Positions 6,044 through 33,369 of a stretch of 64,000 nt of DNA are shown one piece after another. The DNA comes from Candidatus Acetothermia bacterium (lineage in GTDB: Bacteria; Bipolaricaulota; Bipolaricaulia; RBG-16-55-9; JANLFV01): positions 84,387-148,386 of the forward strand of contig JANLFV010000001.1 in the NCBI GenBank assembly GCA_024653345.1, given 5' to 3'. A program made the position numbers and the translations under genes. The number at the start of each line of letters is the position of its first letter. The first letter of the stretch is position 1. Below the pieces are notes generated by a model that ran no database searches, was not told the DNA's origin, and was given only the letters and a program-made list of their open reading frames with translations.

Positions 6044-8818
6044 ATGCGCAGGCGGGTGATCTTCCTCGGGTTGCTGTGCGCGCTCCTCACTTCAGCGACC
6101 GCGGCCGCGCAGCTGACGCCGCCCTACGACTGGCAGATGATGGAGACCCCGCACTTCCGCATCATCTTCCATCCGGAGGTCGAGGGCCTGGCCTGTGAGG
6201 CGGCCGTGGCCGCGGAGGACGCCTATCAGCTCTGGGCCGCGGAGCTTGCCACCACTCCCCCACCCAAGACCGACATCGTGGTGATCGACTTCGACGATAG
6301 CCCCAACGGCTTCGCCGACCCATACGAGCTTCACAGCTGGGAGTTCGCCAGCCAGGTGCAATTCAGCGCCTGGTCCGGCGGGCGGGTCGCCTCTAACATC
6401 GCCGACACGATCTATCACGAGTATTGGCACATCGTCGATATCGGCAAGGTGAGCGGCCCCTCGCAGGTCCTGCGCCAGCTCTTGGGGCGGAAGGTCATCC
6501 CGAACGATCTGAAGCCGCTGTTCAACATCGAGGGCTCCGCTACCTACGGCGAGTATCTGAAATACGGCTACTCGAGGGCTAACTTCGCGACCGCGGCGAT
6601 GTATCTCCGCCAGATGGCCCTGGACAATGATTTCCCCCCGCTCGATCGCGCCGCCACCTACTTCACCAACACGCGCTGGCCGTCCCTCGGGACGCTCTGG
6701 TATCTCCTGGGCGCCTGGTTCATGCGCTACATCGAGGAAGAGCATGGCCGAGGCGTGCTGGCCAAGCTCGATGAGCTCAATGCGCGAAGCTGGTCCGCCA
6801 CGCTCTCCGCCCTCCTGGCGGACCTGCTCGCGGATCAGCTCGGCGTGGCCTTTTATGTCGGCCCCGACTTCGGGGAGTTGATGGCCCAGGCGACCGGCGT
6901 CTCGGCAAGAGAGCTCTACGAGGGCTTCCAGCAGTGGCTGAGGAGCCAAGCCCTCGAGCACCTGAGAGAAGTTGAGGCAGAGGGGATCACCTCGAGCATC
7001 CGGCTCACCTCCCACGGCTACTGGACGGCCCAGCCGAGATGGTCCCCCGACGGCCAGTGGATTGCCTACGAGCATGACGACCCCTTCCGGCTCGGCGGCG
7101 TCCGGCTCGTCCGGCCGGATGGAAGAGACGATCATCCGCTGCTTCCGGCCACTTTCGTGCTGGAAGGAGCGTTCAGTTGGTCCCCCGACGGCCGGAGGCT
7201 GGTCTACTCCAGCTACGATCGGTTCGGTCATTACTTCAGCTACAACGACCTCTACCTCTATGACCTGGAGGCAGGCAAGGCGGAGCGCCTGACTCGCGGC
7301 GCACGGGCCTATAACCCGGTCTTCACGCCTGATGGCAGCAGCATCCTCTTCGGGAAGCAGGGCCCGGGGGACCGGACCAGCCTCATGAGACTGGAGCTGG
7401 CAACTGGCGCGGTCGAGACGATCAAGGAGTTCCCGCCCGACACCTTCCTCGACTTCTTCGCCCTCTCTCCCGACGGACGGCGGCTGGCCCTCTCGATCTG
7501 GAAGCGCCCGGGCTTCTCCGACCTCTATCTCATGTCGGCCACCGGCGGGGGACTCCAACCGCTCACGCAAGACCGGAACGAGGACCTCCGGCCCACATGG
7601 TCGCCAGACGGCGAGTATGTGCTGTTCGACTCGATCCGGGACGAGACATTCAACGTCTACGCGGTCCACATCTCCGATCGGAGCTTCTTGCGCGTGACCA
7701 ATGCGGTCTCCGGGGCCTCTGCTCCCACGATCTCCCCGGACGGGAAGAGGATCGCCTTCATCGGCTACAGTAGCCGAGGCTACGACCTCCACCTGATGGA
7801 CTTCGACCCCACCAGCTGGAAGGCGGTTAGCTTCCCGTCGGAGTCCATCCCCTCCTGGCCCGGCTTCCCCGAGGTCGATTACCCCGTCCGGCCCTATGAT
7901 CCGTCCCAGACGATGAGGCCGAAGTATTGGGAGCCAGCGCTCTATGGGACCCGACTCGGCGCGCGCACCTCCGCTTGGGACGCACTCTACCGCCGGTCCT
8001 ACTTCGCCGAGGCTGGCTACGACTGGTCACAGCGCGGGCCGTTCGCCTCCCTCTCCTACACGGACTCGGAGCAGCTCTCGCCCCTGGTCTTGAGCCTCAG
8101 CCTCGACCTCTTGCCCTACGGCAACGCCGAGCAGCTGTCACTGGAGTATTGGCCGCTCGAGGGATTCTATCAGTCCCAGCGGCTCTCGCTGGCGGTGGAA
8201 CGAGCGGAGTCCGCGAAGTTGGCCTACAGCCTCTCCGCTGCGTGGGACGGCTTCGCACTCCTCGGAAAGGACCTCTTCTGGCAGGAGCTCGAGGCTTCAC
8301 TTGGCACCTCGCTTTACTACGACACCGAGACGGGGGAGTGGAGTCGCGAGGCAGTCCTCGAGCTCAGGGACTACCTCCACCTTCCGGTGATCGATCTTGC
8401 TGGGCCGCACGAGCTGGCGCTCCGGTTGGCAGCGGGCTGGAGCGATCGCGAGGGGAACTTCGCCTTGGGCGGGACCAGTGGGCAGTTCCTCCTCCGCGGC
8501 CAGCCGGATGGCGTCCTGGAAGGGAGCTTGATCGCCGGCACCAGCATCGAGTATCGCTTCCCATTGCTCTCCCTCGAGAAGGGCTGGGGCTTGAGGCCTC
8601 TCTTCCTTGACGACCTGCGCGGGGCGCTCTTCGCCGATGCCGGGCTGGCGGGGGACCGGCTGCCGACGCTCGCCGAGCTGAAGGCCGGCTATGGCCTGGA
8701 GCTCCAGCTGCTCTTCACCACGGGGTTTGGCGTGCCGCAGGCGCTCAGCCTCGGCGTGGCTTACGGGCTGGGGCAGCCCGAGCCAATCTTCTATCTCGGC
8801 TTCGGCTCGGCCTTCTAG
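6044..8818 (+). CDS. Large outer-membrane protein with a signal peptide, an HExxH zinc-peptidase-like N-domain, a PD40 (TolB-like) beta-propeller and an Omp85/BamA-like C-terminal beta-barrel.
   Basis: Signal peptide MRRRVIFLGLLCALLTSATAAAQ. The motif IYHEYWHIVD (HExxH) lies in the N-domain. At least six PD40 repeats (WSPDG/LSPDG/ISPDG). The C-terminus GYGLELQLLFTTGFGVPQALSLGVAYGL...FYLGFGSAF resembles the Omp85 barrel closing strands with a terminal Phe. Confidence 0.6.
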   Translation: MRRRVIFLGLLCALLTSATAAAQLTPPYDWQMMETPHFRIIFHPEVEGLACEAAVAAEDAYQLWAAELATTPPPKTDIVVIDFDDSPNGFADPYELHSWEFASQVQFSAWSGGRVASNIADTIYHEYWHIVDIGKVSGPSQVLRQLLGRKVIPNDLKPLFNIEGSATYGEYLKYGYSRANFATAAMYLRQMALDNDFPPLDRAATYFTNTRWPSLGTLWYLLGAWFMRYIEEEHGRGVLAKLDELNARSWSATLSALLADLLADQLGVAFYVGPDFGELMAQATGVSARELYEGFQQWLRSQALEHLREVEAEGITSSIRLTSHGYWTAQPRWSPDGQWIAYEHDDPFRLGGVRLVRPDGRDDHPLLPATFVLEGAFSWSPDGRRLVYSSYDRFGHYFSYNDLYLYDLEAGKAERLTRGARAYNPVFTPDGSSILFGKQGPGDRTSLMRLELATGAVETIKEFPPDTFLDFFALSPDGRRLALSIWKRPGFSDLYLMSATGGGLQPLTQDRNEDLRPTWSPDGEYVLFDSIRDETFNVYAVHISDRSFLRVTNAVSGASAPTISPDGKRIAFIGYSSRGYDLHLMDFDPTSWKAVSFPSESIPSWPGFPEVDYPVRPYDPSQTMRPKYWEPALYGTRLGARTSAWDALYRRSYFAEAGYDWSQRGPFASLSYTDSEQLSPLVLSLSLDLLPYGNAEQLSLEYWPLEGFYQSQRLSLAVERAESAKLAYSLSAAWDGFALLGKDLFWQELEASLGTSLYYDTETGEWSREAVLELRDYLHLPVIDLAGPHELALRLAAGWSDREGNFALGGTSGQFLLRGQPDGVLEGSLIAGTSIEYRFPLLSLEKGWGLRPLFLDDLRGALFADAGLAGDRLPTLAELKAGYGLELQLLFTTGFGVPQALSLGVAYGLGQPEPIFYLGFGSAF

Positions 8819-8827
8819 GAGGTGACG

Positions 8828-9940
8828 ATGACAAAGGTGCTGCTTCTGGCGATGGTCCTAGGGATCTTGGTGGTGGCGCTCGTCCCGCGCGGGCCGACAC
8901 TGCGGTTCATCGGGGCCTACTCGATCCCCACGGACGAGTGGTCCTTCGGGACGATGCCGGTCGGGGAGCTATCCGGGCTCGCTTACGATCGAGCGAAGGA
9001 TATCTACTACGCCATCAGCGATGATCGGGGGGACACGGGCACCCCGGGCAGGCTCTATACTCTGCGAATTACGCTAGATCAGCGAGGGATTCACGCTGTT
9101 CAAGCCTGCTGCGTCACCTTCCTGGACAGCGATGGCAGCACTTCGGGCCTCCAGCCCTATCCCGCCAAGGGGCTGGATCCCGAGGAGGTGGTCCTCACCC
9201 CTCAGGGGACTTTAGTGATTTCCTCCGAGCGGGATCTGGACGGCCGCCCCTGGATCCGCGAGTTTGCGCTCGATGGTTCCCTCCTTGGGGAGATCCCGAT
9301 CCCCGAGAGGTTCATGCCCTCCCAGGGCAAGGGCGTGCGGAACAACCTCGCCTTCGAGGGCCTGGCGCTGACCCCGGACGGGAAGACCCTCTTCACCATC
9401 AACGAGCAGGCGCTGGCCCAGGACGGCCCGCTCGCGACCGTCGAGCACGGGACAACGGTCCGGCTGAGCCGATACGATCTGAGCGGCCCGCACCCGAGCG
9501 TCGTCGCGGAGTATCCCTATGTGACCGAGCCGATCTTCGCCCCGCCTCAGGGGACTTACGCGGACAACGGCGTCACGGCCATCCTCTATGTGAAGGAGAT
9601 CCTGCCGCGCTACGAGCTGCTCGTCCTCGAGCGGGCCTTCTCTGAGGAGATAGGGAACGACATCAAGCTCTTCGCCGTCCGCCTCGCGGGAGCGGAGGAT
9701 GTCAAGGGCCTCCCCTCCCTCCCCTTCCCCTTCACCGGGAGGGCGGTGGAGAAGACCCTTCTCCTGAGGATTTCAGCGCTGAAGAGCCTCTCCGATCTCC
9801 CGGTCAGGCCGGACAACATCGAAGCGCTCGCCCTCGGGCCGCGGCTGAAGAACGGCCACTACACCCTCATCCTAGCGAGCGACAACAACTTCAATCAGGA
9901 CCAGACGAACCTCTTCCTGGCCTTCGAACTTGTGCCCTGA
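8828..9940 (+). CDS. Secreted protein with a phytase-like esterase domain (esterase-like activity of phytase family).
   Basis: N-terminal TM/signal segment (MTKVLLLAMVLGILVVALV). The GELSGLAYD...YYAISDDRG motif region is typical of the phytase-like beta-propeller family. It is co-directional with the upstream gene at a 3-10 nt gap, with AGGAGG before the ATG at 8828. Confidence 0.45.
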   Translation: MTKVLLLAMVLGILVVALVPRGPTLRFIGAYSIPTDEWSFGTMPVGELSGLAYDRAKDIYYAISDDRGDTGTPGRLYTLRITLDQRGIHAVQACCVTFLDSDGSTSGLQPYPAKGLDPEEVVLTPQGTLVISSERDLDGRPWIREFALDGSLLGEIPIPERFMPSQGKGVRNNLAFEGLALTPDGKTLFTINEQALAQDGPLATVEHGTTVRLSRYDLSGPHPSVVAEYPYVTEPIFAPPQGTYADNGVTAILYVKEILPRYELLVLERAFSEEIGNDIKLFAVRLAGAEDVKGLPSLPFPFTGRAVEKTLLLRISALKSLSDLPVRPDNIEALALGPRLKNGHYTLILASDNNFNQDQTNLFLAFELVP

Positions 9941-9948
9941 CCGTCAGT

Positions 9949-10890
9949 TCAGTTGTGATAGACCTTCCCCTGGAGGCGGTAGTCTCCGCTCGCCGACCTG
10001 ATGTAGGCCGCCTTGACGCAGGCCGCCTTCTCCTCGCTCGCCTGAACGAGGAAGGTGAACTCCGGGCCGACGGGGGCCGCGACCTTCGCCTCGCCTCTCT
10101 CGAGGATCGCGCTGAGGTAGAGGTAGTTCGGGGCGGTCACCAGGGCCAGGAGCGCGGGCCCGAGCAAGCTCACCGCCAGGCTACCGAGGCCGGCCTCCTT
10201 CACCGCAAAGGCGCCGGGAAGCTCGATGATCGTCGCTCCTGAGCCGACGGCGATGTCGAGCGCCCGCTGGGAGGGGAGCTTCTCGCAGTCGACAGAGACA
10301 TTGAAGCCGAAAGAGGCCCCCGGAACGGCGACCGGCGCCGCCGGCGGCTGGGGCGGAGTGATGAGCTGAAAGAGGAGGTAGAAGACGGAGGCCGGGGGAG
10401 CGAAGAGGCTGACCGATGTGACGACGAAGGCGGCGAGCTCCCCGGAGCGGCGACCGGCCAGGGTGATGACCACAGGGTTTCCATAGACGACGATCCCGTA
10501 TTCCCCGGCGAAGTCCCTCCCTCGAAGGAGTACCCCCTCAGGGACGGTGATCGTTCCATAGACGATGTGCGAAGGCTGCCCCAGTGGGAGGGTCATGAGG
10601 CTCCAGGCATCCTGGAAGATCGTCCCGACGAGGCCGGTCGAGGAGCGGACCTCGCCGATTGGCACTCCCTTATCGAACTCCGCGGCCAGGGCCGCACCCG
10701 GCCTCAGGCCAGTCCTGCTCGTGAACTCCTGCTCTCGCTCGCCGAAGCCTGGGTCGTCGGGAAAGAGGACCGTCATGCCCGCGCTGACCGAGACGGTCTG
10801 AGCCGGGGCTTCCGTTTCGAGCCCGCCGGTGCCGATCAAGACCATCAGCGAGAGGAGACCTGCTGCTATGACCAGGCGCTTTCGCATCAA
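9949..10890 (-). CDS. Hypothetical secreted protein.
   Basis: Clear signal peptide MMRKRLVIAAGLLSLMVLIGTGG. No recognisable domain. Convergent with the upstream phytase-like gene. Confidence 0.4.
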   Translation of the reverse strand: MMRKRLVIAAGLLSLMVLIGTGGLETEAPAQTVSVSAGMTVLFPDDPGFGEREQEFTSRTGLRPGAALAAEFDKGVPIGEVRSSTGLVGTIFQDAWSLMTLPLGQPSHIVYGTITVPEGVLLRGRDFAGEYGIVVYGNPVVITLAGRRSGELAAFVVTSVSLFAPPASVFYLLFQLITPPQPPAAPVAVPGASFGFNVSVDCEKLPSQRALDIAVGSGATIIELPGAFAVKEAGLGSLAVSLLGPALLALVTAPNYLYLSAILERGEAKVAAPVGPEFTFLVQASEEKAACVKAAYIRSASGDYRLQGKVYHN

Positions 10891-14224: not shown

Positions 14225-15232
14225 GTGAAGACAGTGGCCCTGGTCGCCTCGGTGATCGTCGGCCTGGGGATCCTTGCGGCGATCCTCTACTATGTCGGCT
14301 GGCAAGGGATCGCGCGCGAGATCTACCAGCTCGGCTGGCTCGGCTGCCTCGCCCTGGCCGGTAACTACCTCCTCACCTTCTTCTTCTGGGGCCTCACCTG
14401 GCGGATCATCCTGAGATCCTACGAGATCGACGCCCCCTGGCGCGCGGTCCTGCGGGCCCTCGTGAGCGGCTACACCGTGAGCTATCTCACCCCCTCGATG
14501 TATTTCGGCGGGGAGCCGGTCCGGGTCTATGTCTTCTCCAAGGAGATCGGCCTCCCCCAGCCCCGCCTCTACGCCACGGTCTTTGTGACCAAGCTCCTGG
14601 AGGCGGTCAGCTTGATCCTCTTCGTCCTCCTCGGCGTCTTCTACGCGCTCTTCGCCGGGGGGAACCTCTCGGAGATCCAGCGCCAGTCGCTCTTCTACGG
14701 CGCGATCATCTTCAGCTTCTGGGTCTTCTTGGGCGTCTTGAACTTCACCCTGAACCTCGGGCTGGCAACGCGCCTGCTCCGGGGGCTCCGCCGCCTCCTC
14801 CCCTGGAAGGGGCTCCTCGTCAAGGCCGAGGAGAAGGTAGCGGAGGTCGAACGGGAGATCAGGCAGGCCTTCCATCAGGGCTCCAAGCTCCCCGCCACGG
14901 CCCTAGCGCTGCTCACGAGCTTCGCCGCCAACTTGCTCATCTACCTCCGCCCGCAGATCTTCTTCTACTTCACCCAGGAGAGGCTCTTCTCGCTCGCCAA
15001 CCTCTCCCTCGTCTACGCCCTCTCGGTTATCGTGGCCTCCCTCTTCTGGATCACTCCCGGAGGGATCGGGATCGCCGAGGGCGGCTGGATCGGGATCCTC
15101 ACGCTCGTAGGGATCGGGAAGGCAGGAGCGGTGGCCTTCGCCCTGATCCTGAAAGGCTTCGAGTTGACCTTCGTCATCGTGGGGATATCATTATTGATGG
15201 AGTTCGGCGTGCACCGTCGCTGGAGGAGGTGA
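14225..15232 (+). CDS. Integral membrane protein of the lysylphosphatidylglycerol-synthase TM-region / flippase-like family (UPF0104).
   Basis: About 8 TM helices with the conserved GGxxxxxEG-like segment (PGGIGIAEGGWIG). This family is typically found beside GT2 genes. Confidence 0.6.
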   Translation: MKTVALVASVIVGLGILAAILYYVGWQGIAREIYQLGWLGCLALAGNYLLTFFFWGLTWRIILRSYEIDAPWRAVLRALVSGYTVSYLTPSMYFGGEPVRVYVFSKEIGLPQPRLYATVFVTKLLEAVSLILFVLLGVFYALFAGGNLSEIQRQSLFYGAIIFSFWVFLGVLNFTLNLGLATRLLRGLRRLLPWKGLLVKAEEKVAEVEREIRQAFHQGSKLPATALALLTSFAANLLIYLRPQIFFYFTQERLFSLANLSLVYALSVIVASLFWITPGGIGIAEGGWIGILTLVGIGKAGAVAFALILKGFELTFVIVGISLLMEFGVHRRWRR

Positions 15233-15236
15233 GGCG

Positions 15237-16172
15237 ATGGCCCGATCTATCTTGGCAGCTCTCGTCCTGCTCCTGGCCCTCTCCGGGTTGGCAAGAGCCG
15301 ACTCGCTGACCGTAATCCTGAACGGTGGCGAGGGCGGGGAGAGCCTACTGTGCGGACTAGCCCAGGACTCCTTCCTGATGGAGTATCGTCTGGCGTTCGC
15401 TAGCCCCGGGCTCAGGGAGATCGAGCTCGGCCTCCGCCCGCCGCTGGCCCCCATCCGCCGCTTGGGCATGGAGTTTCAGCCCTACCTGATGGTCAACCCC
15501 GCCCGGGGCTTGACCGCCGGCCTCTTCGCCGAGAGGATAGAGCTCTCGGGCCTGGCCTACCTGGCGACGCTGACGGACTTGGCCTTCTCCAACCGGGGCG
15601 TGATGTTCTTCCTCAAGGGCGAGTATGCCGTGGGGAACATCGGCCTCCGCGGCCACCTCCAGCTCGACTGGGGCCGGCTGGCCGTCCAGCCCTGGGCGGG
15701 GAGGCTGAAAGAGCCATACTTCCCGGAATGGGCCCTCCTCACCACCGCCAGCCGTCGCTCCGGCTACCTCCCCAACTCCAACCTCTACATAGAGATCCGC
15801 AGAAGGTTCTCCACCAATCTGACGCTCTCCGAGGGCTTCGCCACCCCGCTCGGCAGCTCGCAGCTCGTCCCGGCCATCTTGCTGAACGCCGAGGTGGGGA
15901 GCTTGGCTCTCCGCCTCCTCCGCCAATTCCCCCAAGAGCTAGGGGAGGCCTTTACCCTGATCTCGCTCGGCTTCCGCCAGGGAGTCCTCTACACCCCGGA
16001 GCAGAAAAGAGCGGCGATCGTCCAGCTCGACCTCCAGTTCCGCTGGTTCCCCCAACGGGTGGAGGTCGATCTCCTCTCGAGCTACACCACCGCGGAGTTC
16101 GCCATCCAGAGCGAGAGCCACCTGACCTCGGAGGGCCTCTCCTACAGCCTCAGCCTCGAGGTGGGCTTCTGA
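15237..16172 (+). CDS. Hypothetical secreted protein, possibly an outer-membrane beta-barrel.
   Basis: Signal peptide MARSILAALVLLLALSGLARA. Alternating hydrophobic pattern and a C-terminal ...SLEVGF ending in Phe. Confidence 0.4.
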   Translation: MARSILAALVLLLALSGLARADSLTVILNGGEGGESLLCGLAQDSFLMEYRLAFASPGLREIELGLRPPLAPIRRLGMEFQPYLMVNPARGLTAGLFAERIELSGLAYLATLTDLAFSNRGVMFFLKGEYAVGNIGLRGHLQLDWGRLAVQPWAGRLKEPYFPEWALLTTASRRSGYLPNSNLYIEIRRRFSTNLTLSEGFATPLGSSQLVPAILLNAEVGSLALRLLRQFPQELGEAFTLISLGFRQGVLYTPEQKRAAIVQLDLQFRWFPQRVEVDLLSSYTTAEFAIQSESHLTSEGLSYSLSLEVGF

Positions 16173-25394: not shown

Positions 25395-25590
25395 AGGATA
25401 GCATAGCTCGCATCCGAGTGATAACCTCCTGGCGGGCCTTGAGCCCGGTCCTGTCCCGACTTTGCTCCGCCTTCGTCTTCCCCTAGCCTACCCGGGGTCG
25501 GTACCGGCATCTCACGGCACCTTGCCCGGGTATTAGGCCAGCTTGTGTATGTGGCAAAACCTCTGAATCAATAGGGAAAATGGGCATCAC

Positions 25591-25619
25591 TTGCCGAGGC
25601 CGGGTCGCGGTGCTATAAT
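25591..25619 (+). promoter_or_regulatory. Sigma70-type promoter: TTGCCG, 17 nt spacer, TATAAT, upstream of the copper operon.
   Basis: The -35 TTGCCG (25591-25596) and a perfect -10 TATAAT (25614-25619) with 17 nt spacing, followed by the RBS AAAGGAG and an ATG at 25668. The surrounding intergenic region is AT-richer than the coding DNA. Confidence 0.5.
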
Positions 25620-25631
25620 CTGCTGGCTGAA

Positions 25632-25645
25632 CCCACCCGAGGTGG
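25632..25645 (+). promoter_or_regulatory. GC-rich inverted repeat CCCACCcgaGGTGG downstream of the -10; a candidate CsoR-type operator.
   Basis: Seen directly in the sequence. It resembles the GC-rich pseudo-palindromes bound by CsoR-family repressors, and a csoR gene terminates this operon. Confidence 0.3.
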
Positions 25646-25667
25646 AGTCGGCAAGAAAGGAGCGAAG

Positions 25668-26363
25668 ATGCGGGGAAGGGGCAAGGCTTGGATGGTCGTT
25701 GGGATCGTAGCTCTGGGGTTACTCTCTGGCGGGGCCCTTGGCCTCACTTACGGGACCCCCTGGGGGTCGGCTGGCGGAGGGATGATGGGCGGCTGCCCCA
25801 TGGGTGGGCCAGGGATGGGCTGGTATCCGGGCTTCGTGGCCCAGGACATGGCGCAGGCGGCCCAGGCCGCGCAACTGTATGTGGCGGCCTTCTGGGGCGA
25901 GCCCGATCTTGCGGTCAAGGAGGTCATGGAGTTCTCCAATCAGTTCTATGTCCAGATCGAGGAGCGGAGCACCGGCCTCGGGGCGATGGAGCTCTTGGTA
26001 GAAAGGCCCAGTGGCCTGGTCCATCCCGAGCCGGGGCCGAATATGATGTGGAACCTCAAATACGGCCATATGGCCCGGGGGATGGGCATGATGGGCCGGT
26101 GGCAGGGCTGGCAGGCCCCGCCGGCCGGGATGCCGCTCAGCCCGGAGCAGGCCGAGCAGCTCGCCCAGCAGTATCTGGATGCCTATATGCCCGGCGCAAA
26201 GGTTACTGAAGAGATCACGCCATTCTACGGCTACTATACCCTCGATCTTGAGAGAGCTGGCCGGATCTTTGGGATGCTCTCGGTCAATGGCTTCACTGGC
26301 CAGGTCTGGTATCACCACTGGCACGGCCAATTCCTGGGGATGTGGGAGCCCGAGGGGCATTGA
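25668..26363 (+). CDS. Secreted Met/His-rich protein, a putative periplasmic Cu(I)-binding protein.
   Basis: Signal/TM segment, then Met-rich motifs MMGGCPMGGPGMGW and HMARGMGMMGRW, and a His-rich C-terminus VWYHHWHG. First gene behind the promoter. Confidence 0.4.
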   Translation: MRGRGKAWMVVGIVALGLLSGGALGLTYGTPWGSAGGGMMGGCPMGGPGMGWYPGFVAQDMAQAAQAAQLYVAAFWGEPDLAVKEVMEFSNQFYVQIEERSTGLGAMELLVERPSGLVHPEPGPNMMWNLKYGHMARGMGMMGRWQGWQAPPAGMPLSPEQAEQLAQQYLDAYMPGAKVTEEITPFYGYYTLDLERAGRIFGMLSVNGFTGQVWYHHWHGQFLGMWEPEGH

Positions 26364-26993
26364 TTGAACCGAGTCCAAGCGACCGCTAGGACCCAGGCCC
26401 GCTACGACCGGCTCGCGCCGGTCTACGACCTTATGGGGGCCCTGATGGAGCGGACCGCCCAGAAGTGGCGGCGGCTCCTCTGGGAGGAGGTCGAGGGGGA
26501 GAGCATCCTAGAGGTCGGGGGGGGCACGGGGAAGAACATGCCCTTCTACCCTAAGGGCCCGAGGATCACGGCCATCGACCTGAGTGAGAGGATGCTCCAG
26601 CGGGCGCGGCGGCGGGCCGCGCGGCTCGGCTTAGAGGTCGAGCTCCGCCAGATGGATGTCCAGGCCCTCGATTTCCCCGATAAGTCGTTTGATATCGTGG
26701 TAGCGACCTTCGTCTTCTGCTCCGTCCCCGATCCCGTCCTCGGCCTGCGGGAATTAGGGCGGGTCGTGAAGCCCCGGGGCAAGATCTTGCTCCTCGAGCA
26801 CATCCGCCCGGAGTGCCCCTGGCTCGGGAGGCTCTTCGACCTCTTGAATCCCCTAGTCGTCCGCCTCTTCGGGTTCAACATTAACCGCCGCACGCTCTTG
26901 AGCCTCGCCGAGGCCGGGCTGAAGCTCGACTTCGTGAAGGATCTGGACAGGCTGGGCATCTTCAAGCTGATCGGGGCCAGACCGAGCGCTTAA
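26364..26993 (+). CDS. Class I SAM-dependent methyltransferase (Methyltransf_11/UbiE-like).
   Basis: Motif I ILEVGGGTGKN and a post-I acidic residue. 209 aa. TTG start abutting the upstream stop. Confidence 0.8.
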   Translation: MNRVQATARTQARYDRLAPVYDLMGALMERTAQKWRRLLWEEVEGESILEVGGGTGKNMPFYPKGPRITAIDLSERMLQRARRRAARLGLEVELRQMDVQALDFPDKSFDIVVATFVFCSVPDPVLGLRELGRVVKPRGKILLLEHIRPECPWLGRLFDLLNPLVVRLFGFNINRRTLLSLAEAGLKLDFVKDLDRLGIFKLIGARPSA

Positions 26994-27001
26994 GGAGGAA
27001 G

Positions 27002-27229
27002 GTGAACAGGATGCCTGAAAGGGTAAGGGACCCCGTCTGCGGGATGGAGCTCGAAGAGGACCAGGCGGCGGCGACCTACGAGTATAAGGGCAAGACCTAC
27101 TATTTCTGCGCTCTCAGCTGTCGGGAGGAGTTCGAGCGAGATCCAGAGAAGTATCTCGGCAAGGAAACTGAGGAGCATCGCAGGCGGAGGGGCCGGTTCT
27201 GGCGAGGCCTGATCGGCAGGTGCCATTAA
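27002..27229 (+). CDS. YHS-domain metal-binding protein.
   Basis: DPVCGMEL...YYFCALSCREEF YHS/TRASH-like motif. The alternative start at ATG 27011 has a better RBS. Confidence 0.75.
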   Translation: MNRMPERVRDPVCGMELEEDQAAATYEYKGKTYYFCALSCREEFERDPEKYLGKETEEHRRRRGRFWRGLIGRCH

Positions 27230-27251
27230 CTAAAGGAGAGGAGGTGCGATT

Positions 27252-27314
27252 ATGTGCCCACCGTGCCCACTGTGCCGAGGCGGAGCTAGGGCAAAGCGGG
27301 TCAGGAGGGCCTAG
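27252..27314 (+). CDS. 20-codon Cys-rich mini-ORF MCPPCPLCRGGARAKRVRRA. It may be a leader or metal-binding peptide; translation is unproven.
   Basis: Strong RBS AAAGGAGAGGAGGTG 5 nt upstream of the ATG. Three Cys in CPPCPLC. Its stop codon sits in the loop of a perfect 9-bp hairpin. Confidence 0.25.
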   Translation: MCPPCPLCRGGARAKRVRRA

Positions 27315-27323
27315 GCCCTCCTG
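27302..27323 (+). promoter_or_regulatory. Perfect GC-rich hairpin caggagggccTAGgccctcctg spanning the mini-ORF stop. A second imperfect hairpin follows at ~27338-27368.
   Basis: A 9-bp perfect inverted repeat seen directly. It lies between the YHS gene and the RBS of the PCYCGC gene. Confidence 0.3.
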
Positions 27324-27384
27324 GCCCTTCGAGGCGGCTTGCCCGCCGAGCTGCTAAGCGGCGGCAAGAACAGGAGGTGAGCGA

Positions 27385-27933
27385 ATGAAGAAAGGTCAAC
27401 AGAAGAGGCTGCTCTGGGCCGGGGCGAGCCTAATAGTGTTATTCCTCGGGCTCCTCGGCCTCTTCCTCTCCGGGAAGATCGGCGACGAGGAAGGCGCGAA
27501 CCGGTTCACGATCGGGGGCTATACCTTGCCCCGGGCGCTCCCGGATTACGCCCGCCGGGACAACTATACCCTCGCGAGCTATATGACCGCCCTAGCGATG
27601 CCAAGGGCGCTGGAGCACATCCCCTGCTACTGTAGCTGCGATGCGGCCGGCCATGAGAATCTCGCCGACTGCTTCCTCGAGGGCAAGGGGTTCACCGCAC
27701 ATGGGGCGAACTGCGGGATCTGCAAGGTCGAGGCGGCCAAGGCCGCTGAATTGTTGCTGAAGGGGGCTTCGATAAAGGAGGCCCGGGCCCTCATCGAGCA
27801 ACAGTTCGGGAACGGCCACTACGGCCGGCCGACGCCCACCCCGCCGATCGCGGAGGATCGCTATCTCAGTGAGCTAGCACCCGAGCTCGACCGCGAGGCC
27901 TTCCAACGGGCCTTGAAGGAGTTGTTCGAATAG
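27385..27933 (+). CDS. PCYCGC-motif domain protein, a membrane-anchored putative metal-binding protein.
   Basis: N-terminal TM helix, then HIPCYCSCDAAGHENLADC and a further CGIC motif. Confidence 0.6.
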   Translation: MKKGQQKRLLWAGASLIVLFLGLLGLFLSGKIGDEEGANRFTIGGYTLPRALPDYARRDNYTLASYMTALAMPRALEHIPCYCSCDAAGHENLADCFLEGKGFTAHGANCGICKVEAAKAAELLLKGASIKEARALIEQQFGNGHYGRPTPTPPIAEDRYLSELAPELDREAFQRALKELFE

Positions 27934-27947
27934 GAAAAGGAGCAAAG

Positions 27948-28586
27948 ATGGGGATCCAGAGAGGCATCAACAGCAAGGAGCTTGCCGCAATCTGGCGGCC
28001 GATACTGGTGCTCGCCGGCCTGGTCTTGCTCTTTCTGACGGTCCTCAATAGTGCGATGCCCTCGGCAGCCTCGGGCGGGCCGGCGGTAGACGGAGTGATC
28101 GGCCCGGAGGAATATCAGTTCCACTACGCCGACCCGGACATCGGGATGGAGGTCTATTGGGCAATCACTGACCACGACTTCTATATCGGGCTCAGGGCCC
28201 CGGCCAAGGGGTGGCTCGCCCTCGGCCTCTACCCCGGGATCCCTCCCGAGGCCGAGGGGATGAAAGGGGCGGACATCTACATCGCCTATGTGAGCGGAGG
28301 TCGGGCCTTCGGCGGGGACCACTTCGCCGATAGCCTCTTCGGCCATCAGCCGGATACCGCGCTGGGCGGGACCGCGGACATCGCCGAGCTCGCCGGCTCC
28401 GAGGAGGCCGGCTCTACCACCATCGAGTTCAAGCGGGCGCTGAACACACTGGACAAGTTCGACGCCGATCTGCCCGTCCGCGGGCTGGTCTACCTCGCCT
28501 ACGCCGAGGCCGACGACTTCGCGCGGATCCACACAGCCCGGACCGAGGCGATCTTCAACTTCGCCACCGGAAGGGTGGAGAAGTAG
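27948..28586 (+). CDS. Membrane-anchored protein with a DOMON-like beta-sandwich domain (tentative).
   Basis: N-terminal TM helix. The extracytoplasmic domain has a DOMON-like aromatic/His pattern (FHYADPD...YWAITDHDFYIGL). Assignment from pattern memory only. Confidence 0.35.
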   Translation: MGIQRGINSKELAAIWRPILVLAGLVLLFLTVLNSAMPSAASGGPAVDGVIGPEEYQFHYADPDIGMEVYWAITDHDFYIGLRAPAKGWLALGLYPGIPPEAEGMKGADIYIAYVSGGRAFGGDHFADSLFGHQPDTALGGTADIAELAGSEEAGSTTIEFKRALNTLDKFDADLPVRGLVYLAYAEADDFARIHTARTEAIFNFATGRVEK

Positions 28587-28649
28587 GGGAGGGTGGGCTG
28601 ACCAAGGTCCCCGGCAGGCTGGGATTCTCAAGAGAAGGAGGAGTAAACG

Positions 28650-29057
28650 ATGGAGGAGAAGGGGCCTCGGGCACAAGCAAGTGAGCGGCCGATCGCGGCC
28701 TTCGTCCTCGCGCTCCTAGCTGGCTTGTGGATGGTAGCGGCAGGAGGAATGATGGCCGGTTTCGGCTGGGGCGCGGGCGGGATGAGCTGGATGTGGGGCC
28801 ATGGGATGATGGGCCGCTTCGGAAGCTTCGCTTCACCTTCGCCCTGGTGGCCCTGGCTCGGGCTCATCGCGGGTATCGTTGTCCTGGTCGGCGCGACGAT
28901 GCTCTACGCCCGGCCGAAGCAGGCCCAGGGGTGGGGGATCGTCATCCTGGTCGCCTCAGCGCTCAACCTCTTCCTGGGGATGGGCGGCATCCTCGCGAGC
29001 CTCCTCGGCATCATCGGCGGGGCACTGGCCCTGGCCGGCGGATCGAAGGGCAGTTGA
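28650..29057 (+). CDS. Small integral membrane protein with a Gly/Met/Trp-rich loop.
   Basis: Two or three TM helices flanking [31 protein letters not shown] before the ATG. Confidence 0.45.
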
Positions 29058-29070
29058 AAGAGGTGAAACC

Positions 29071-29643
29071 ATAAGTTACGACCTGATCATCCTCGGCTCA
29101 GGCTCGGCGGCCTTCGCCGCGGCCCTCAAGCAGCTGGGGGTCGAGGTGGCGATGCTCACCGGGGACAGCCGGGCCGTTGCCGAGTGGGTCGCCGGGGAGC
29201 TCGGCCTGGATGTGGTCTTCGCCGAGGTCAAGCCGGAGGAGAAGGCGGCCAAGGTGAAGGAGCTCCAAGCCCAAGGGAAGGTCGTGGCGATGGTGGGCGA
29301 TGGGATCAACGACGCCCCGGCGCTCGTCCAGGCCGATGTGGGGATCGCCATCGGCGCGGGGACCGATGTGGCGATCGAGTCAGCCGATGTCGTCCTGGTG
29401 AAGAACGACCCCCGGGATGTGGTCAAGCTGATCCGCCTCTCCCGGGCGACGATGCGCAAGATGCGCCAGAACTTGGTCTGGGCTACGGGCTACAACGCCG
29501 TGGCCATCCCCGCCGCGGCCGGGGTCTTCTACCCCCTGGGGCTGGTCCTCCGCCCGGAGTGGGGGGCGCTGATCATGGCCGCGAGCACGCTGATCGTCGC
29601 CGCTAACGCGCTCTTACTGCAGCGGGCTCGGCTGGAGGTTTAG
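29071..29643 (+). pseudogene. Truncated duplicate of the C-terminal ~190 aa of a copper P-type ATPase (a copA fragment with no plausible start codon).
   Basis: Its translation matches the hinge/TM region of the downstream CopA (residues ~640-829) almost co-linearly: [34 protein letters not shown]. It lacks the N-terminal HMA, CPC and DKTGT regions. There is no in-frame ATG/GTG near its 5' end. Confidence 0.55.
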
Positions 29644-29661
29644 GCTGGACTAGGGAGAGGA

Positions 29662-32151
29662 GTGATGAGCATAGAGAAGCTGGAGCTGAAGATCTCCGGG
29701 ATGACCTGCGCCTCCTGTGTAGCCAGGATCGAGAAGGGCCTCTCCGCGCTGGACGGCGTGGTGGAAGCCAGCGTCAACCTGGCCACGGAGCGAGCTAGGG
29801 TGGGCTTCGATCCCTCCAAGACCCGGCCTCAGGAGCTCGTCAAGGCCATCGAGGAGCTCGGCTATGAGGTCGAGCTGGCAAAGCTCAGCCTCCCCATCCA
29901 GGGGATGACCTGTGCCTCCTGTGTCAGGAAGGTCGAGGAGGCCTTGAAGGGCGTTCCAGGGGTCATCAAAGCCAGCGTCAACCTGGCTACGGAGCGGGCT
30001 ACGGTCGAATATCTCCCCGGTGTGGCCGGCCTGCAAGACCTCAAGCGGGCCGTCCATGACGCTGGCTATGAAGTCCTGGAGGTCGAGCCAGAAGCTGCCC
30101 TGGAGCGGGAGGAGCGGGCCCGGCGGCAGGCCTACCTCGGGCTGAAGCGGAAGCTCAGCCTCGGGCTCGCGCTCACCGTTCCCATCTTCCTCCTCACTTA
30201 CGCCGATCCCTTGGGGCTCGCGGCGCTGATCCCCTGGCGGCTCAATTCCCTCTTGCAGCTCCTCCTGGCCACGCCGGTCCAGTTCTGGGTCGGCTGGCAG
30301 TTCTACCGCCGGGCCTGGGCCGCGGCCAAGCACAAGACCGCTGATATGAACACCCTCATCGCCGTGGGGACCTCCGCAGCCTATATCTACAGCATGGTCG
30401 CCACCTTCTTCCCCGGGCTATTCGCCGCCGAGGGCCTGGGGGCCCATGTCTACTTCGACACCGCTGCGGCGATCATCGTCCTGATCCTCTTAGGAAGGCT
30501 CCTCGAGGCCCGGGCCCGGGGCCGGACCTCGGAGGCAATCAAGAAGCTCATGGGCCTCCGGCCGAAGACCGCCCGGGTCATCCGTGAGGGCCAAGAGGTC
30601 GACATCCCCGTGGAGGAGGTCGCGGTCGGGGAGATCGTCGTCGTGCGCCCGGGGGAGAAGATCCCCGTCGATGGGATGATCGTCGAGGGCTACTCCTCAG
30701 TCGATGAGTCGATGCTCACCGGGGAGTCCCTGCCGGTGGAGAAGGGGCCCGGATCGGAGGTGATCGGGGGGACGCTCAACCGGACCGGCTCCTTCAAGTT
30801 CAGGGCGACCAAGGTGGGGAAGGAGACGGCCCTGGCCCAGATCATCAGGCTGGTCGAGGAGGCCCAGGGCTCGAAGCCCCCGATCGCCCGGCTCGCGGAC
30901 ACCATCGCCGGCTATTTTGTCCCCGCGGTCATCGGGATCGCCTTGCTCACTTTCATCGCCTGGCTCCTCTTCGGCCCCGAGCCGCGCCTTACTTATGCCT
31001 TGCTCAACTCGATCGCTGTCCTGATCATCGCCTGCCCCTGCGCCCTCGGGCTGGCCACCCCCACTTCGATCATCGTCGGGACGGGGAAGGGGGCAGAGCA
31101 CGGCATCTTGATCCGCGGCGGCGAGGCCCTGGAGACGGCCCATAAGCTGGATGCGATCGTCCTGGACAAGACCGGGACCCTCACTCGCGGCGAGCCCCAA
31201 GTCACTGAGGTCATCTCGCAAGACGGCAATGAGGAGGCGGTCCTGGCCCTGGCCGCCTCCGCGGAGCGGGGCAGCGAGCACCCCCTGGGGGAGGCGATCG
31301 TCCGGCGGGCTCAGGAGCTGGGGCTCGAGCTAGCCGATCCGGAGGAGTTCGAGGCCCTCCCTGGGAGGGGAGTCCGGGCCCGGGTCGATGGCCGAGAGGT
31401 CCTCTTGGGGAACCTCCGGCTGATGGAGGACGAAGGGCTCGATCTTGGAGGGCTGGGCGAGGAGGCCGCGCGGCTCTCCGCGGCGGGGAAGACGCCCATG
31501 TTCTTAGCCGTTGATCGAAGAGCGGTGGGGATCATCGCCGTGGCCGATACCCTGAAGGAGGGCTCGAAGGAGGCGGTGGCAGCCCTCAAGGGCCTGGGCC
31601 TCGAGGTGCTCATGATCACCGGGGACGACCGCCGGACCGCGGCGGCGATCGCCAGGGAGGCTGGGCTCGAGCCCGACCGCGTCCTGGCCGAGGTCCTCCC
31701 TCAAGACAAGGTCTTGGAGATCAAGAGGCTCCAGGCCCAGGGCCTGCGGGTGGCGATGGTCGGGGACGGGATCAACGATGCCCCGGCCCTGGCCCAAGCG
31801 GATGTGGGAATCGCGATCGGGACCGGGACGGATGTGGCCATGGAGGCCGCGGACATCACCCTGGTCGGGGGCGACCTCCGCGGGGTGGTCACGGCCATCG
31901 CTTTGAGCAGGGCCACGATCCGGAACATCCGGCAGAACCTCTTCTGGGCCTTCTTCTACAATGCCATCCTCATCCCTGTGGCTGCGGGGGTCCTCTATCC
32001 CTTCTTCGGGCTCTTGCTCTCCCCGATCTTCGCCGCCGCGGCGATGGGTGCCTCCTCGGTGACCGTAGTGAGCAACGCCCTCCGGCTCCGGCGGTTCGCG
32101 CCCCCGCTAGGGCGGGGAGTGCGGGTCGCTCCCGCTCCTATTGAAGCCTAG
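29662..32151 (+). CDS. copA: Copper-translocating P1B-type ATPase.
   Basis: Two N-terminal HMA domains (GMTCASCV twice), the CPC motif ([10 protein letters not shown]), [17 protein letters not shown] and HP. 829 aa. Confidence 0.95.
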
Positions 32152-32212
32152 GGCGGGCTCTGTTACGATCAATCCGATCCCCAAAAAGGATCGGCTGGGA
32201 AAGGAGCGGACA

Positions 32213-33001
32213 GTGAAAGGCTTCATCTCGATGAGGTGGTCGGCCCTGGTCATCGGGCTGGTCCTGGCCGGGGGGTTCTTCCTCGCCGGGCTCTTCACCC
32301 ATGAGTTGATCTTCCCCCAGCGGGGCTTGGAGGAGTTGAAGGCCCGGGTCGCAGAGCTCCAGGGGCAAGTGAAGGCCCTGAGTGAGCAGGTGGCCAAGCT
32401 AGCGGCCCAAGCCCAAGCTCCGGCCCAGGCTCAGGCCCAGAGGCCCGAGGGGCCGGAGCGGGTCGAGGTGAGCGTCGACGACGACCCCGCGCTCGGGCGG
32501 CCCGAGGCCCCGGTGGTGATCGTGGAGTTCTCCGACTTCCAGTGCCCCTACTGCGCCCGGTTCGCTCAACAGACCTTCCCCCAGCTCAAGAAGGAATACA
32601 TCGATACCGGGAAGGTGCGGCTCGTCTTCCGCGACTTCCCGCTCTCGTTCCACCAGAATGCCGCGCCGACGGCCGAGGCGGCCCAGTGCGCCCACGAGCA
32701 GGGCCGCTTCTGGGAGTATCACGACCGGCTCTTCGCCGGGCAGGGGGAGTGGTCCGGGAGCGCCAGCGCCAGCCAGATCTTCGCCGGCTATGCCGAGGGG
32801 CTCGGCCTGGATGGGGCGAGGTTCCGCGAGTGCCTCGCCTCCAGGCGCTACAAAGAGGAGGTGCAGCGGGATTTCAATGACGGTATAGGCTACGGCGTGA
32901 CGGGGACCCCGACCTTCTTCATCAACGGGCGGAAGCTCGTCGGGGCCCAGCCGTTCAGTGCCTTCCAGCAGATGATCGAGGCCGAGCTGAAGGGAGGATA
33001 G
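32213..33001 (+). CDS. Membrane-anchored DsbA-like thiol:disulfide oxidoreductase (thioredoxin fold).
   Basis: TM helix, a coiled-coil linker, then FSDFQCPYCARF (CPYC active site) and the DsbA-family C-terminus. Start chosen at a GTG with a nearby AAAGGAG; ATG 32231 is the alternative. Confidence 0.8.
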   Translation: MKGFISMRWSALVIGLVLAGGFFLAGLFTHELIFPQRGLEELKARVAELQGQVKALSEQVAKLAAQAQAPAQAQAQRPEGPERVEVSVDDDPALGRPEAPVVIVEFSDFQCPYCARFAQQTFPQLKKEYIDTGKVRLVFRDFPLSFHQNAAPTAEAAQCAHEQGRFWEYHDRLFAGQGEWSGSASASQIFAGYAEGLGLDGARFRECLASRRYKEEVQRDFNDGIGYGVTGTPTFFINGRKLVGAQPFSAFQQMIEAELKGG

Positions 33002-33005
33002 AGAG

Positions 33006-33308
33006 ATGGCCCAAGGAGCGGCCCTGAAGAAGGGGAGCTTGGCGGTCTTCCCCGAGGTCAAGCGGGGACTCCAGCGGAGGATGCGGACCGTCGTCGGCCA
33101 CATCCAGGCGATCGAGCGGATGATTGAGGAGGAGCGCTACTGCGTCGAGATCTTAAAGCAAATAGCGGCCGTCCAGGCCCAGCTCTCGAACATCGCCCAT
33201 GAATTGACCAAGAGCCACATGAAGGGCTGCCTCACCGGGGCGATCCACGCCGGCCACGGCGAGGAGGCGATCGAGGAGCTGGCCGAGATCCTCAAATACC
33301 TCCGCTAG
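33006..33308 (+). CDS. csoR: CsoR/RcnR-family metal-sensing transcriptional repressor.
   Basis: GHIQAIERMIEEERYCVEILKQ...HMKGC with the conserved Cys/His ligand positions of the CsoR family. Confidence 0.85.
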   Translation: MAQGAALKKGSLAVFPEVKRGLQRRMRTVVGHIQAIERMIEEERYCVEILKQIAAVQAQLSNIAHELTKSHMKGCLTGAIHAGHGEEAIEELAEILKYLR

Positions 33309-33315
33309 AGCCCGC

Positions 33316-33344
33316 TTGACTGGGGCGCCACCGCTCTATATAAT
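33316..33344 (+). promoter_or_regulatory. Consensus sigma70 promoter (TTGACT, 17 nt, TATAAT) for the pst operon.
   Basis: TTGACT at 33316-33321 and TATAAT at 33339-33344 with exactly 17 nt between. It lies 57 nt upstream of the pstS ATG. Confidence 0.55.
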
Positions 33345-33348
33345 CCGG

Positions 33349-33369
33349 CTGTGACATATATAGTCACAG
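33349..33369 (+). promoter_or_regulatory. Perfect 7-7-7 palindrome CTGTGAC-ATATATA-GTCACAG immediately downstream of the -10; a candidate operator.
   Basis: Seen directly. Its position at +1 to +25 relative to the promoter is typical of a repressor site. Confidence 0.4.

Follow-up and report, generated by a model that had tools for sequence, protein, structure and literature searches.

A probable CsoR-repressed copper defence operon with conserved accessory genes in a Bipolaricaulota bacterium

Comparison with described copper systems

Known operons controlled by the copper sensor CsoR, such as the cso operon of Mycobacterium tuberculosis (csoR-Rv0968-ctpV-Rv0970) and copZ-csoR-copA of Thermus thermophilus, combine a repressor having Cys-His-Cys ligands and second-shell Tyr and Glu residues with a GC-rich dyad operator, a P1B-1 pump and autoregulation by co-transcription. 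Here we describe a gene cluster occupying positions 25591-33308 (+ strand) of a 64,000-nucleotide stretch of Candidatus Acetothermia bacterium, a member of the Bipolaricaulota (contig JANLFV010000001.1; the whole stretch is called the window), in which the same type of sensor and pump is found together with a putative operator of this type, and autoregulation is predicted. The cluster differs from these operons in having csoR at its end, a stand-alone YHS protein and two HMA domains in the pump but no CopZ gene, six additional conserved genes separating promoter and pump, and a putative operator whose right arm is degenerate. With a probability of roughly 0.6 we regard it as a CsoR-repressed defence operon against copper (soft metals). 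A preliminary description of this DNA, made from the sequence, had also proposed copper handling, and a CsoR/CopA set with one recognisable promoter and operator before the first gene agrees with that proposal. As the CsoR and CopA core is textbook, the whole cluster does not amount to a new kind of system; it differs from the standard by six conserved accessory genes under the same operator, the stand-alone YHS protein in the place of CopZ, and a scar left by a deletion in a mercury/copper region. The preliminary description had also considered the gene combination undescribed, and the literature on PCYCGC, PepSY/Met-rich copper proteins, DUF302/YHS and YHS/CsoR indeed yielded no paper describing it.

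Other known systems resemble single parts of the cluster. CusF, PcoE/SilE, CopM and CopC are periplasmic copper binders rich in Met and His. Two proteins of the cluster, here called g1 and g7, likewise expose segments rich in Met, His and Trp outside the membrane, and their genes have copper pump genes as neighbours. No sequence or fold relation to them is apparent, however, g1 being predicted as a tandem PepSY-like protein and g7 as a membrane protein of three helices. Thioredoxin-like proteins are known copper-tolerance factors, as in the Scs system of Salmonella. The CxxC thioredoxin-fold protein g10 and the Cys-rich protein g5 recall scsABCD/Dsb copper tolerance by their presence in a copper cluster, but homologues of ScsA, ScsB and ScsD were not identified there.

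Promoter, putative operator and regulator

Four relatives serve for comparison: L002 (Bipolaricaulia, GCA_052745335), L129 (JGI 3300059600), L009 (a Fraserbacteria genome) and L128 (a related contig). The cluster is preceded by a sigma-70-type promoter at 25591-25619 (+ strand; TTGCCG-17 nt-TATAAT, with TG before the -10 element; 10 of 12 matches), which the preliminary description had called near-consensus. It is one of just two + strand sigma-70-like matches in the 8.5 kb scanned, and its -10 element and spacing are kept in L002, L009 and L129. Eleven bases 3' of the -10 element starts a CsoR-type operator-like box, AACCCACCCGAGGTGGAGTCGG (25630-25651, + strand), which is unique in the window. 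Compared with the boxes of the relatives, its left arm is intact and its right one degenerate. At the same place L002 has AACCCACCCGAGGAGGGGTCGG, L129 the perfect palindrome AACCCACCCG-AGGG-CGGGTGGG (also written CCCACCCG-AGGG-CGGGTGGG) and L009 the perfect palindrome CACCCACCCCCAGGAGGGGTGGGG (also written CCCACCCCCAGGAGGGGTGGGG), so that a GC-rich box occupies the same position in four genomes. The published CsoR site of M. tuberculosis, GTAGCCCACCCCCAGTGGGGTGGGATAC (PMC10601412), is almost the same as the box of L009. No further CsoR boxes were found within the 64-kb window.

The regulator itself (g11, 33006-33308, + strand) belongs to the Trns_repr_metal family (PF02583; 82.1 bits, cut-off 22.8; E 3.8e-23) and has the ligand set of the Cu(I)-sensing type. 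Its residues C46, H71 and C75 align with the Cu(I) ligands Cys36-His61-Cys65 of M. tuberculosis CsoR (2hh7), and Y45 and E91 with the second-shell residues Tyr35 and Glu81 (alignment E 1.5e-17). The last position of csoR, which had been called atypical, holds for the window and also for L002; it is a minor point, as with one autoregulated promoter it has no obvious consequence.

All eleven elements of the preliminary description are present at the positions given, on the + strand and with gaps of 0-70 nt when a mini-ORF, too short for the program-made listing of open reading frames (ORFs), is counted; without the mini-ORF the gap between the YHS and PCYCGC genes is 155 nt. Pfam and NCBIfam agree with the labels methyltransferase, YHS, PCYCGC, DOMON, ATPase fragment, CopA, DsbA-like and CsoR. 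Inside the cluster the sigma-70/terminator scan of 8.5 kb revealed no + strand terminator-like sites, and the 18-nt gap between the ATPase fragment and copA holds neither a second promoter nor another box. From this spacing and the lack of other recognisable signals we infer, as the simplest reading, one CsoR-controlled transcript from approximately position 25626 to the end of csoR. A riboswitch or other known RNA in the leader or in the 155-nt gap was rejected, there being no Rfam match to either at E up to 1. The GC content is level throughout the cluster region.

In L129 two AACCCACCCGA boxes, 9818-9828 (- strand) and 9961-9971 (+ strand), point in opposite directions between a divergent FTR1/DUF6125 pair and g1, and the FTR1 iron-permease-like operon of L129 may belong to the same CsoR regulon.

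The pump, the YHS protein and the DsbA-like protein

CopA (g9, 29662-32151, + strand, likely start ATG 29665) has the features of a P1B-1 type Cu(I) ATPase, namely the CPC motif of the fourth transmembrane helix (ACPCALG), DKTGT, MxxSS of the last helix (MGASS) and two N-terminal HMA domains with GMTCASC; it scores 650 bits with TIGR01511 (cut-off 397) and is 85% identical to the ATPase of L002. The stand-alone YHS protein (g3, 27002-27229, + strand, likely start ATG 27011; Pfam YHS E 3.6e-17) ends in a C-terminal Cys-His. In related loci P1B ATPases repeatedly have a stand-alone YHS gene as neighbour, or a YHS domain is fused to the N-terminus of an ATPase. The gene following copA (g10, 32141-33001, + strand, likely start GTG 32213, which has a Shine-Dalgarno (SD) sequence) encodes a DsbA-like protein of the thioredoxin fold that is membrane-anchored and has CPYC in its active site (FQCPYCARF), an assignment supported by Thioredoxin_4 (136 bits, E 1.7e-39); the match to the Rcas_1661 family (162 bits) lies below its cut-off of 190.

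Conservation in relatives

L002 and L129 have the same flanks as the window (thiI-nifU...pstS) and the same order g1 - methyltransferase - YHS - PCYCGC - DOMON - g7 - copA, with intact ORFs of 70-87% protein identity to the window (58-87% for the L002 proteins, at least 70% in all except YHS). This repeated order in one chromosomal location marks the arrangement as more than a chance one. After copA, L002 continues with cysK-cysE, the DsbA-like gene and csoR, and the L129 contig ends shortly past copA. The synteny of the small genes with copA and csoR, on which the preliminary description made its proposal depend, is hence present in the Bipolaricaulota relatives, for csoR where the contig reaches it. 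Beyond this lineage the copper link of the small genes holds in part: the Met-rich (g1), methyltransferase, YHS and g7 genes are again found by copper ATPases, but the DOMON and PCYCGC genes are not. L009 shares 68-87% nucleotide identity with the window over the common genes, in the order cysK - DsbA-like - g1 - NfeD-like - methyltransferase - DUF302 - g7 - CopB-type ATPase - HMA/copA - YHS. L006, a marine metagenome contig, carries methyltransferase - YHS - PCYCGC - DOMON - hemerythrin - g7 beside an IS110-family transposase; its PCYCGC gene is split by a frameshift, and the gene between DOMON and g7 has a hemerythrin domain (L006 positions 108-1025 and 2822-3369).

In L002 cysK and a serine acetyltransferase gene lie between copA and the DsbA-like gene (14262-15912), and cysK edges the L009 island (7433-8425); cysteine supply seems to be tied to the metal island in the relatives. 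L002 has in addition a divergent multi-pass membrane protein with a CxxC motif (CTFPC), whose only Pfam match is a sub-threshold one to SfLAP and which we read as putatively CcdA/DsbD-like.

The merA-copB fragment

Between g7 and copA the preliminary description had placed a copA remnant. This identification has to be replaced, as the fragment is a merA'-'copB chimera and no piece of copA. Its larger part (29120-29643, + strand) is the 3' end of a CopB-type (P1B-3-like) ATPase gene, with MxxST in the last helix (Hydrolase / ATPase-IB, E 1.4e-65). It is only 56% identical to the adjacent copA, and residues 21-183 of the fragment are 97% identical in amino acid sequence to residues 617-779 of the ATPase following g7 in L009, with 93.5% nucleotide identity between window positions 29120-29625 and L009 positions 14468-14973; a recent duplicate of copA was rejected on these values. 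The L009 ATPase is of the CopB type, having CPH in the fourth transmembrane helix, MxxST in the last helix and a His-rich N-terminus. Compared with such P1B-3 ATPases the fragment keeps MxxST but is without the CPH helix and the phosphorylation site.

The smaller part (29071-29130, + strand) is a merA 5' stub with the SD sequence AGAGGTGA and ATA in place of the expected ATG. Of 54 nt compared with the beginning of the L128 merA, 47 are identical, and the 29-mer peptide at this place has mercuric reductase 5x1y as its best solved match (E 0.003). The L128 merA (468 amino acids; TIGR02053 594 bits, cut-off 454) has GGTCVNRGCIPSK, ends in the vicinal Cys pair of SCCAE and stands in an intact arrangement with the order g1 - NfeD - methyltransferase::DUF302 - PCYCGC - g7-like - YgaP-like - MerA - YHS/His-rich ATPase N-terminus. 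In terms of the mer operon the stub thus corresponds to the beginning of a core-only merA like that of L128, but with only about 19 codons and the ATA start the full core, the redox CxxxxC and the C-terminal Cys pair of MerA are missing. No MerR-, MerT- or MerP-like protein is among the ten cluster ORFs scanned, a search that did not extend to the other parts of the window.

The switch from merA to copB occurs inside an 11-12 nt microhomology at 29119-29130, GCGGC(C/G)CT(C/A)AAG. The first approximately 19 codons of merA and the last approximately 170 of copB are left, and approximately 615 copB codons are gone, including those of the CPH helix and the phosphorylation site. This junction marks the fragment as the scar of a deletion mediated by microhomology, which ran from merA codon ~19 to copB codon ~616; a working protein or pump cannot be encoded by what is left. 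The stub and the copB piece together point to an island of mixed mercury and copper history. The merA-copB segment is probably a more recent, laterally shared addition, because its copB piece has 93.5% nucleotide identity to L009 and the surrounding genes have 68-87%. The scar is a clean natural case of microhomology-mediated deletion and shows how such islands grow and are trimmed.

L009 possesses two extra CsoR-type boxes, one of them behind a second promoter before its copA part. A perfect 10-bp dyad, ACCCACCCGA-GG-TCGGGTGGGT, lies at 15019-15045 directly after the copB stop codon, and the second promoter with its box lies at 15120-15180 before the HMA/copA part. Both are missing from the window, which is consistent with their loss in the deletion.

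The g1 family

The first gene, g1 (25668-26363, + strand), encodes a Met/His/Trp-rich protein, membrane-anchored or secreted, with two PepSY-like units. It has no Pfam or NCBIfam match, and PF03413 (PepSY) is not matched at E up to 0.01; few members of its family carry a precomputed PF03413 match. A profile search gave more than 5600 homologues in bacteria and archaea, commonly 45-60% identical, and at least 583 matching stretches occur in a one-genome-per-species collection. The relatives come from Chloroflexota, Bipolaricaulota, Fraserbacteria, Bathyarchaeia, Methanoperedens, Nitrososphaera, Halobacteria and others; this very large family carries no annotation. The motifs PEPGPNMMWN, FYGYYT and GMLSVNGxxGxVWYHxWHG are invariant and are flanked by variable Gly/Met-rich linkers. 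In the AlphaFold2 model (pLDDT 78.6, core above 90) an N-terminal helix is followed by two helix-plus-sheet units, and the predicted fold resembles a tandem PepSY; the best solved match, the tandem PepSY domain of YpeB, is not significant (E 5.6e-3). No characterised relative was found by structure comparison.

The neighbourhoods of g1 were counted in 80 fetched loci, many of which are short contigs; g1 and PCYCGC were the only anchors for the wide neighbourhood scans. An OmpR-type regulator and a histidine kinase are directly downstream of g1 relatives in 37 of the 80 loci, and ArsR-type regulators occur in 19. P1B ATPases are found in 20 loci when only strong scores count and in 31 by clustering, small SHOCT-type proteins of the membrane that carry GMMG repeats also in 31, the g2-type methyltransferase in 13 and g7 relatives in seven, archaea included. 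Zinc-ribbon GMMG membrane proteins were counted in up to 17 loci by clustering, the true number being lower since the cluster includes alternative-frame ORFs of g1. Among 23 ATPases beside g1 relatives, 12 have CPC/MxxSS, 4-5 have CPH- or SPS/MxxST and two have SPC/HEGxT; the copper types (CPC/MxxSS or CPH/MxxST) make up 16-17 of the 23. A genome holds just a few such pumps. By a rough estimate the linkage of g1 to the ATPases is therefore far above chance, which points to copper.

In L013, L018, L019 and other Chloroflexota loci, Gly/Met-rich stretches (e.g., GMMMPGMTGQPGGMMGPGMM) occur in predicted outer loops of the histidine kinases encoded downstream of g1 relatives, and these stretches resemble the sequences of g1, g7 and the SHOCT and zinc-ribbon proteins.

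The methyltransferase and g7

The second gene (g2, 26364-26993, + strand) follows g1 with a gap of 0 nt and encodes a UbiE/PmtA-like class I S-adenosylmethionine methyltransferase (Methyltransf_11, E 2.5e-23). Its best solved relative is phosphatidylethanolamine N-methyltransferase 8ys9 (E 2.3e-22), and with the NCBIfam PmtA equivalog it reaches 97.3 bits, far below the cut-off of 390; a membrane lipid as substrate would be a guess. The L128 orthologue is fused to DUF302, and the conserved linkage with both g1 and DUF302 suggests that g2 acts in the same process as these. The methyltransferases of L002 and L129 (255-257 amino acids) are longer than that of the window by approximately 45-50 C-terminal residues. 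The L002 tail (9600-9737) is Cys-rich (CPECG...CERWC...C), and the window and L006 versions have no tail.

The small membrane protein g7 (28650-29057, + strand) has three helices, a Gly/Met/Trp-rich loop between helices 1 and 2, and no Cys; its only family match is a sub-threshold one to DUF4064. It is kept in L002, L129, L128, L009 and L010, and archaeal versions stand directly beside g1.

Tentatively, and with less than even odds, g1, g7 and the PmtA-like methyltransferase may form an undescribed and very widespread module that handles or senses Cu(I) at the outside of the cell membrane in Chloroflexota, Bipolaricaulota and several archaeal phyla. Membrane proteins of the NfeD-like, DUF302, SHOCT-type and zinc-ribbon GMMG kinds often accompany the three. 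Such a module would fill the role that CusF, CopC and PcoE have in proteobacteria and would be connected to the metal sensor that a given host uses, be it CsoR, ArsR or a two-component system. The cluster offers a well-defined, copper-sensor-controlled setting for several conserved proteins without assigned function. The most useful of these is g1, with thousands of members, invariant Met/His/Trp motifs and strong linkage to copper ATPases and metal regulators. If it binds Cu(I) or signals to the kinases, a large block of hypothetical proteins would be annotated, and this would help to explain extracytoplasmic copper handling in organisms without the proteobacterial Cus, Pco or CopC proteins.

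The PCYCGC and DOMON proteins

The membrane-anchored PCYCGC protein (g5, 27385-27933, + strand, 70 nt behind the mini-ORF) matches PF13798 with 68.8 bits (cut-off 25; E 6.6e-19) and NF041379, the CYCXC family (seleno)protein model, with 69.7 bits, below the cut-off of 90. Its motif is the CYCSC variant (PCYCSC). C81, C83, C85, C96, H106, C110 and C113 are invariant in 40 PCYCGC sequences, and g5 has six Cys and two His at the conserved positions of the family. Its best structural match is CcmH, and structure comparison found no solved or characterised relative. A metagenome scan gave 33 mostly short loci, with a YHS neighbour in one and a DsbA neighbour in two; copA or csoR neighbours were present in 0 of the 33, and the family was rejected as a copper marker.

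The next gene (g6, 27948-28586, + strand) encodes a membrane-anchored DOMON protein (PF03351, 57.3 bits, cut-off 32.7; E 2.4e-15). In the alignment with its 41 homologues H195 is invariant, H133 nearly invariant, and M105 lies in an MKGAD consensus. Electron transfer, possibly via haem, is a plausible function. As the relatives occur in respiratory clusters, DOMON was rejected as a copper marker too. The evidence for a putative copper role of PCYCGC and DOMON in the window is their position in the cluster.

The mini-ORF and its hairpin

Between the YHS and PCYCGC genes lies a mini-ORF of 20 codons, MCPPCPLCRGGARAKRVRRA (27252-27314, + strand), with a strong SD sequence, GGAGAGGAGGTG, and a 5-nt spacer. 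L129 has a counterpart at the same place, MCPFCRGGARRARKK, also with an SD sequence, and the two share the SD sequence, the ATG and MCPxC...RGGAR; the mini-ORF had first been taken for pure chance, and the L129 counterpart reopened the question. The segment of approximately 125 nt is missing from L002/L004 and L006, and no homologue was found in any fetched locus besides L129. Support is thin, but the mini-ORF may be a real small gene or a leader. Its stop codon is located in the loop of a near-perfect hairpin (27298-27327, + strand; folding dG -32 kcal/mol, z -3.2) that is not followed by a T-run, is unique in the window, so that a repeated element was rejected, and is not conserved in L129 (z +0.5). 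An ORF of 45 amino acids at 27220-27357 was discounted, being in another frame, without an SD sequence and not called by JGI.

A CxxC-bearing, copper-responsive upstream ORF is known in CruR (DUF2946), for which a RAPP motif and CxxC have been described (PMC9426467). Both CruR and the mini-ORF are small CxxC ORFs in copper operons, but the mini-ORF lies in the middle of the operon instead of heading it, has 15-20 residues and no RAPP motif, and is found only in some relatives. The CruR/DUF2946 protein is presumably about 100 residues or more in length, and the mini-ORF is much shorter.

Proposed function and alternative explanations

The functions of the accessory proteins given here are suggested by sequence features and neighbours. 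In the absence of copper, CsoR would sit on the box just 3' of the -10 element and block transcription. Binding of Cu(I) at C46/H71/C75 would release it, and the cluster would be read as one long mRNA that includes csoR, giving autoregulation. CopA would then export Cu(I) from the cytoplasm, and the small cytosolic YHS protein is probably a partner that binds metal for the pump. Outside the membrane, the exported Cu(I) would probably be bound by g1 and g7. A probable task of the PCYCGC protein and the DsbA-like oxidoreductase is to guard or repair extracytoplasmic thiols or to sequester metal, and the DOMON protein would probably be an electron carrier, possibly with haem. The PmtA-like methyltransferase would act as a conserved partner of g1. 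The fragment between g7 and copA is dead, left by the loss of merA and most of copB from an ancestral mercury/copper island.

Several observations weigh against this copper operon. As the merA stub shows, the island was in part concerned with mercury in the past. The regulators by g1 relatives are mostly two-component or ArsR-type, with CsoR in two of the 80 loci plus L002, so that the metal specificity of the g1 family is not settled. Distant PCYCGC relatives in metagenomes lie with CcdA, DUF1573 and CcmF-like/Ccm genes and with DsbA, to which they are adjacent or fused. For the DOMON relatives (42-50% identity) the neighbours are genes for Rieske/cytochrome b, Mo-oxidoreductase/NrfD, cupredoxin/COX2-like proteins and cytochrome c, with an HMA ATPase as well in one cluster. 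The right arm of the window box matches the L129 palindrome at five of nine positions, and repression by CsoR may be weak. The evidence for a single transcript, finally, consists of the gene spacing and the lack of other recognisable signals.

The neighbourhoods of the PCYCGC and DOMON relatives, together with the structural match to CcmH, would suit a plain csoR-copA pair with unrelated neighbours, in which g5, g6 and g10 are envelope redox or cytochrome-maturation helpers that are not specific to copper, recruited by position and served by unrecognised promoters of their own. We consider this unlikely: the promoter and CsoR box stand before g1 in four genomes and the sole such pair of the window does not precede copA, the gaps of 0-70 nt contain no + strand terminator or promoter matches, three genomes preserve the order of the block together with copA, and thioredoxin-like copper-tolerance factors are familiar from Salmonella Scs. 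It is likewise improbable that g1-g7 are a mercury or general thiophilic-metal (Hg/Ag/Cu) module, a leftover that once served the lost MerA, with PCYCGC and the membrane proteins in the roles of MerP and MerT, and is now co-transcribed with copA. The stub directly after g7, the invariant Cys of PCYCGC and the L128 arrangement, which runs from methyltransferase::DUF302 through PCYCGC, g7-like and YgaP-like genes to MerA with no merT or merP called, are all in its favour. L002 and L129, however, keep the six genes intact without merA, and a merA passing the MerA model occurs in one of the approximately 130 fetched loci, with one weaker merA-like match in L064. In addition, g7 is free of Cys, a CsoR of the Cu(I) type and not MerR serves as regulator, g1 relatives adjoin copper-type ATPases, and the merA-copB piece, whose identity to L009 exceeds that of the other genes, seems to have been added later. 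Quite doubtful is a third proposal, compatible with a copper operon, that a leader made up of the mini-ORF and its hairpin responds to metal or cysteine and tunes the genes from PCYCGC onwards. The shared SD sequence, ATG and MCPxC...RGGAR, the stop codon in the hairpin loop, the precedent of CruR and the cysK-cysE insertion in the L002 island would fit such a leader, but the mini-ORF is absent from L002 and L006, the hairpin is not kept in L129, no RAPP arrest motif is present, and a peptide of 15-20 residues would still be in the ribosome tunnel at the end of translation, which makes sensing of the CruR kind unlikely.

Flanking regions

The copper cluster, whose DNA also forms part of a 154-kb contig in JGI metagenome 3300038743, is flanked upstream by an RF-1-domain gene, thiI and a nifU-like gene, and downstream by pstSCAB-phoU. 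An 18-nt imperfect inverted repeat (TACCCGGGGTCGGTACCG ... CGGCACCTTGCCCGGGTA) at 25489-25532, between nifU and the cluster promoter, is partly kept in L002 and could be the end of the nifU transcript or the site of another protein. On the other side, pstS has a strong promoter of its own at 33316-33344 (TTGACT-17-TATAAT, 11 of 12 matches). The perfect palindrome CTGTGAC-ATATATA-GTCACAG at 33349-33369, between the -10 element of pstS and its ribosome-binding site, looks like an operator of the phosphate-transport operon.

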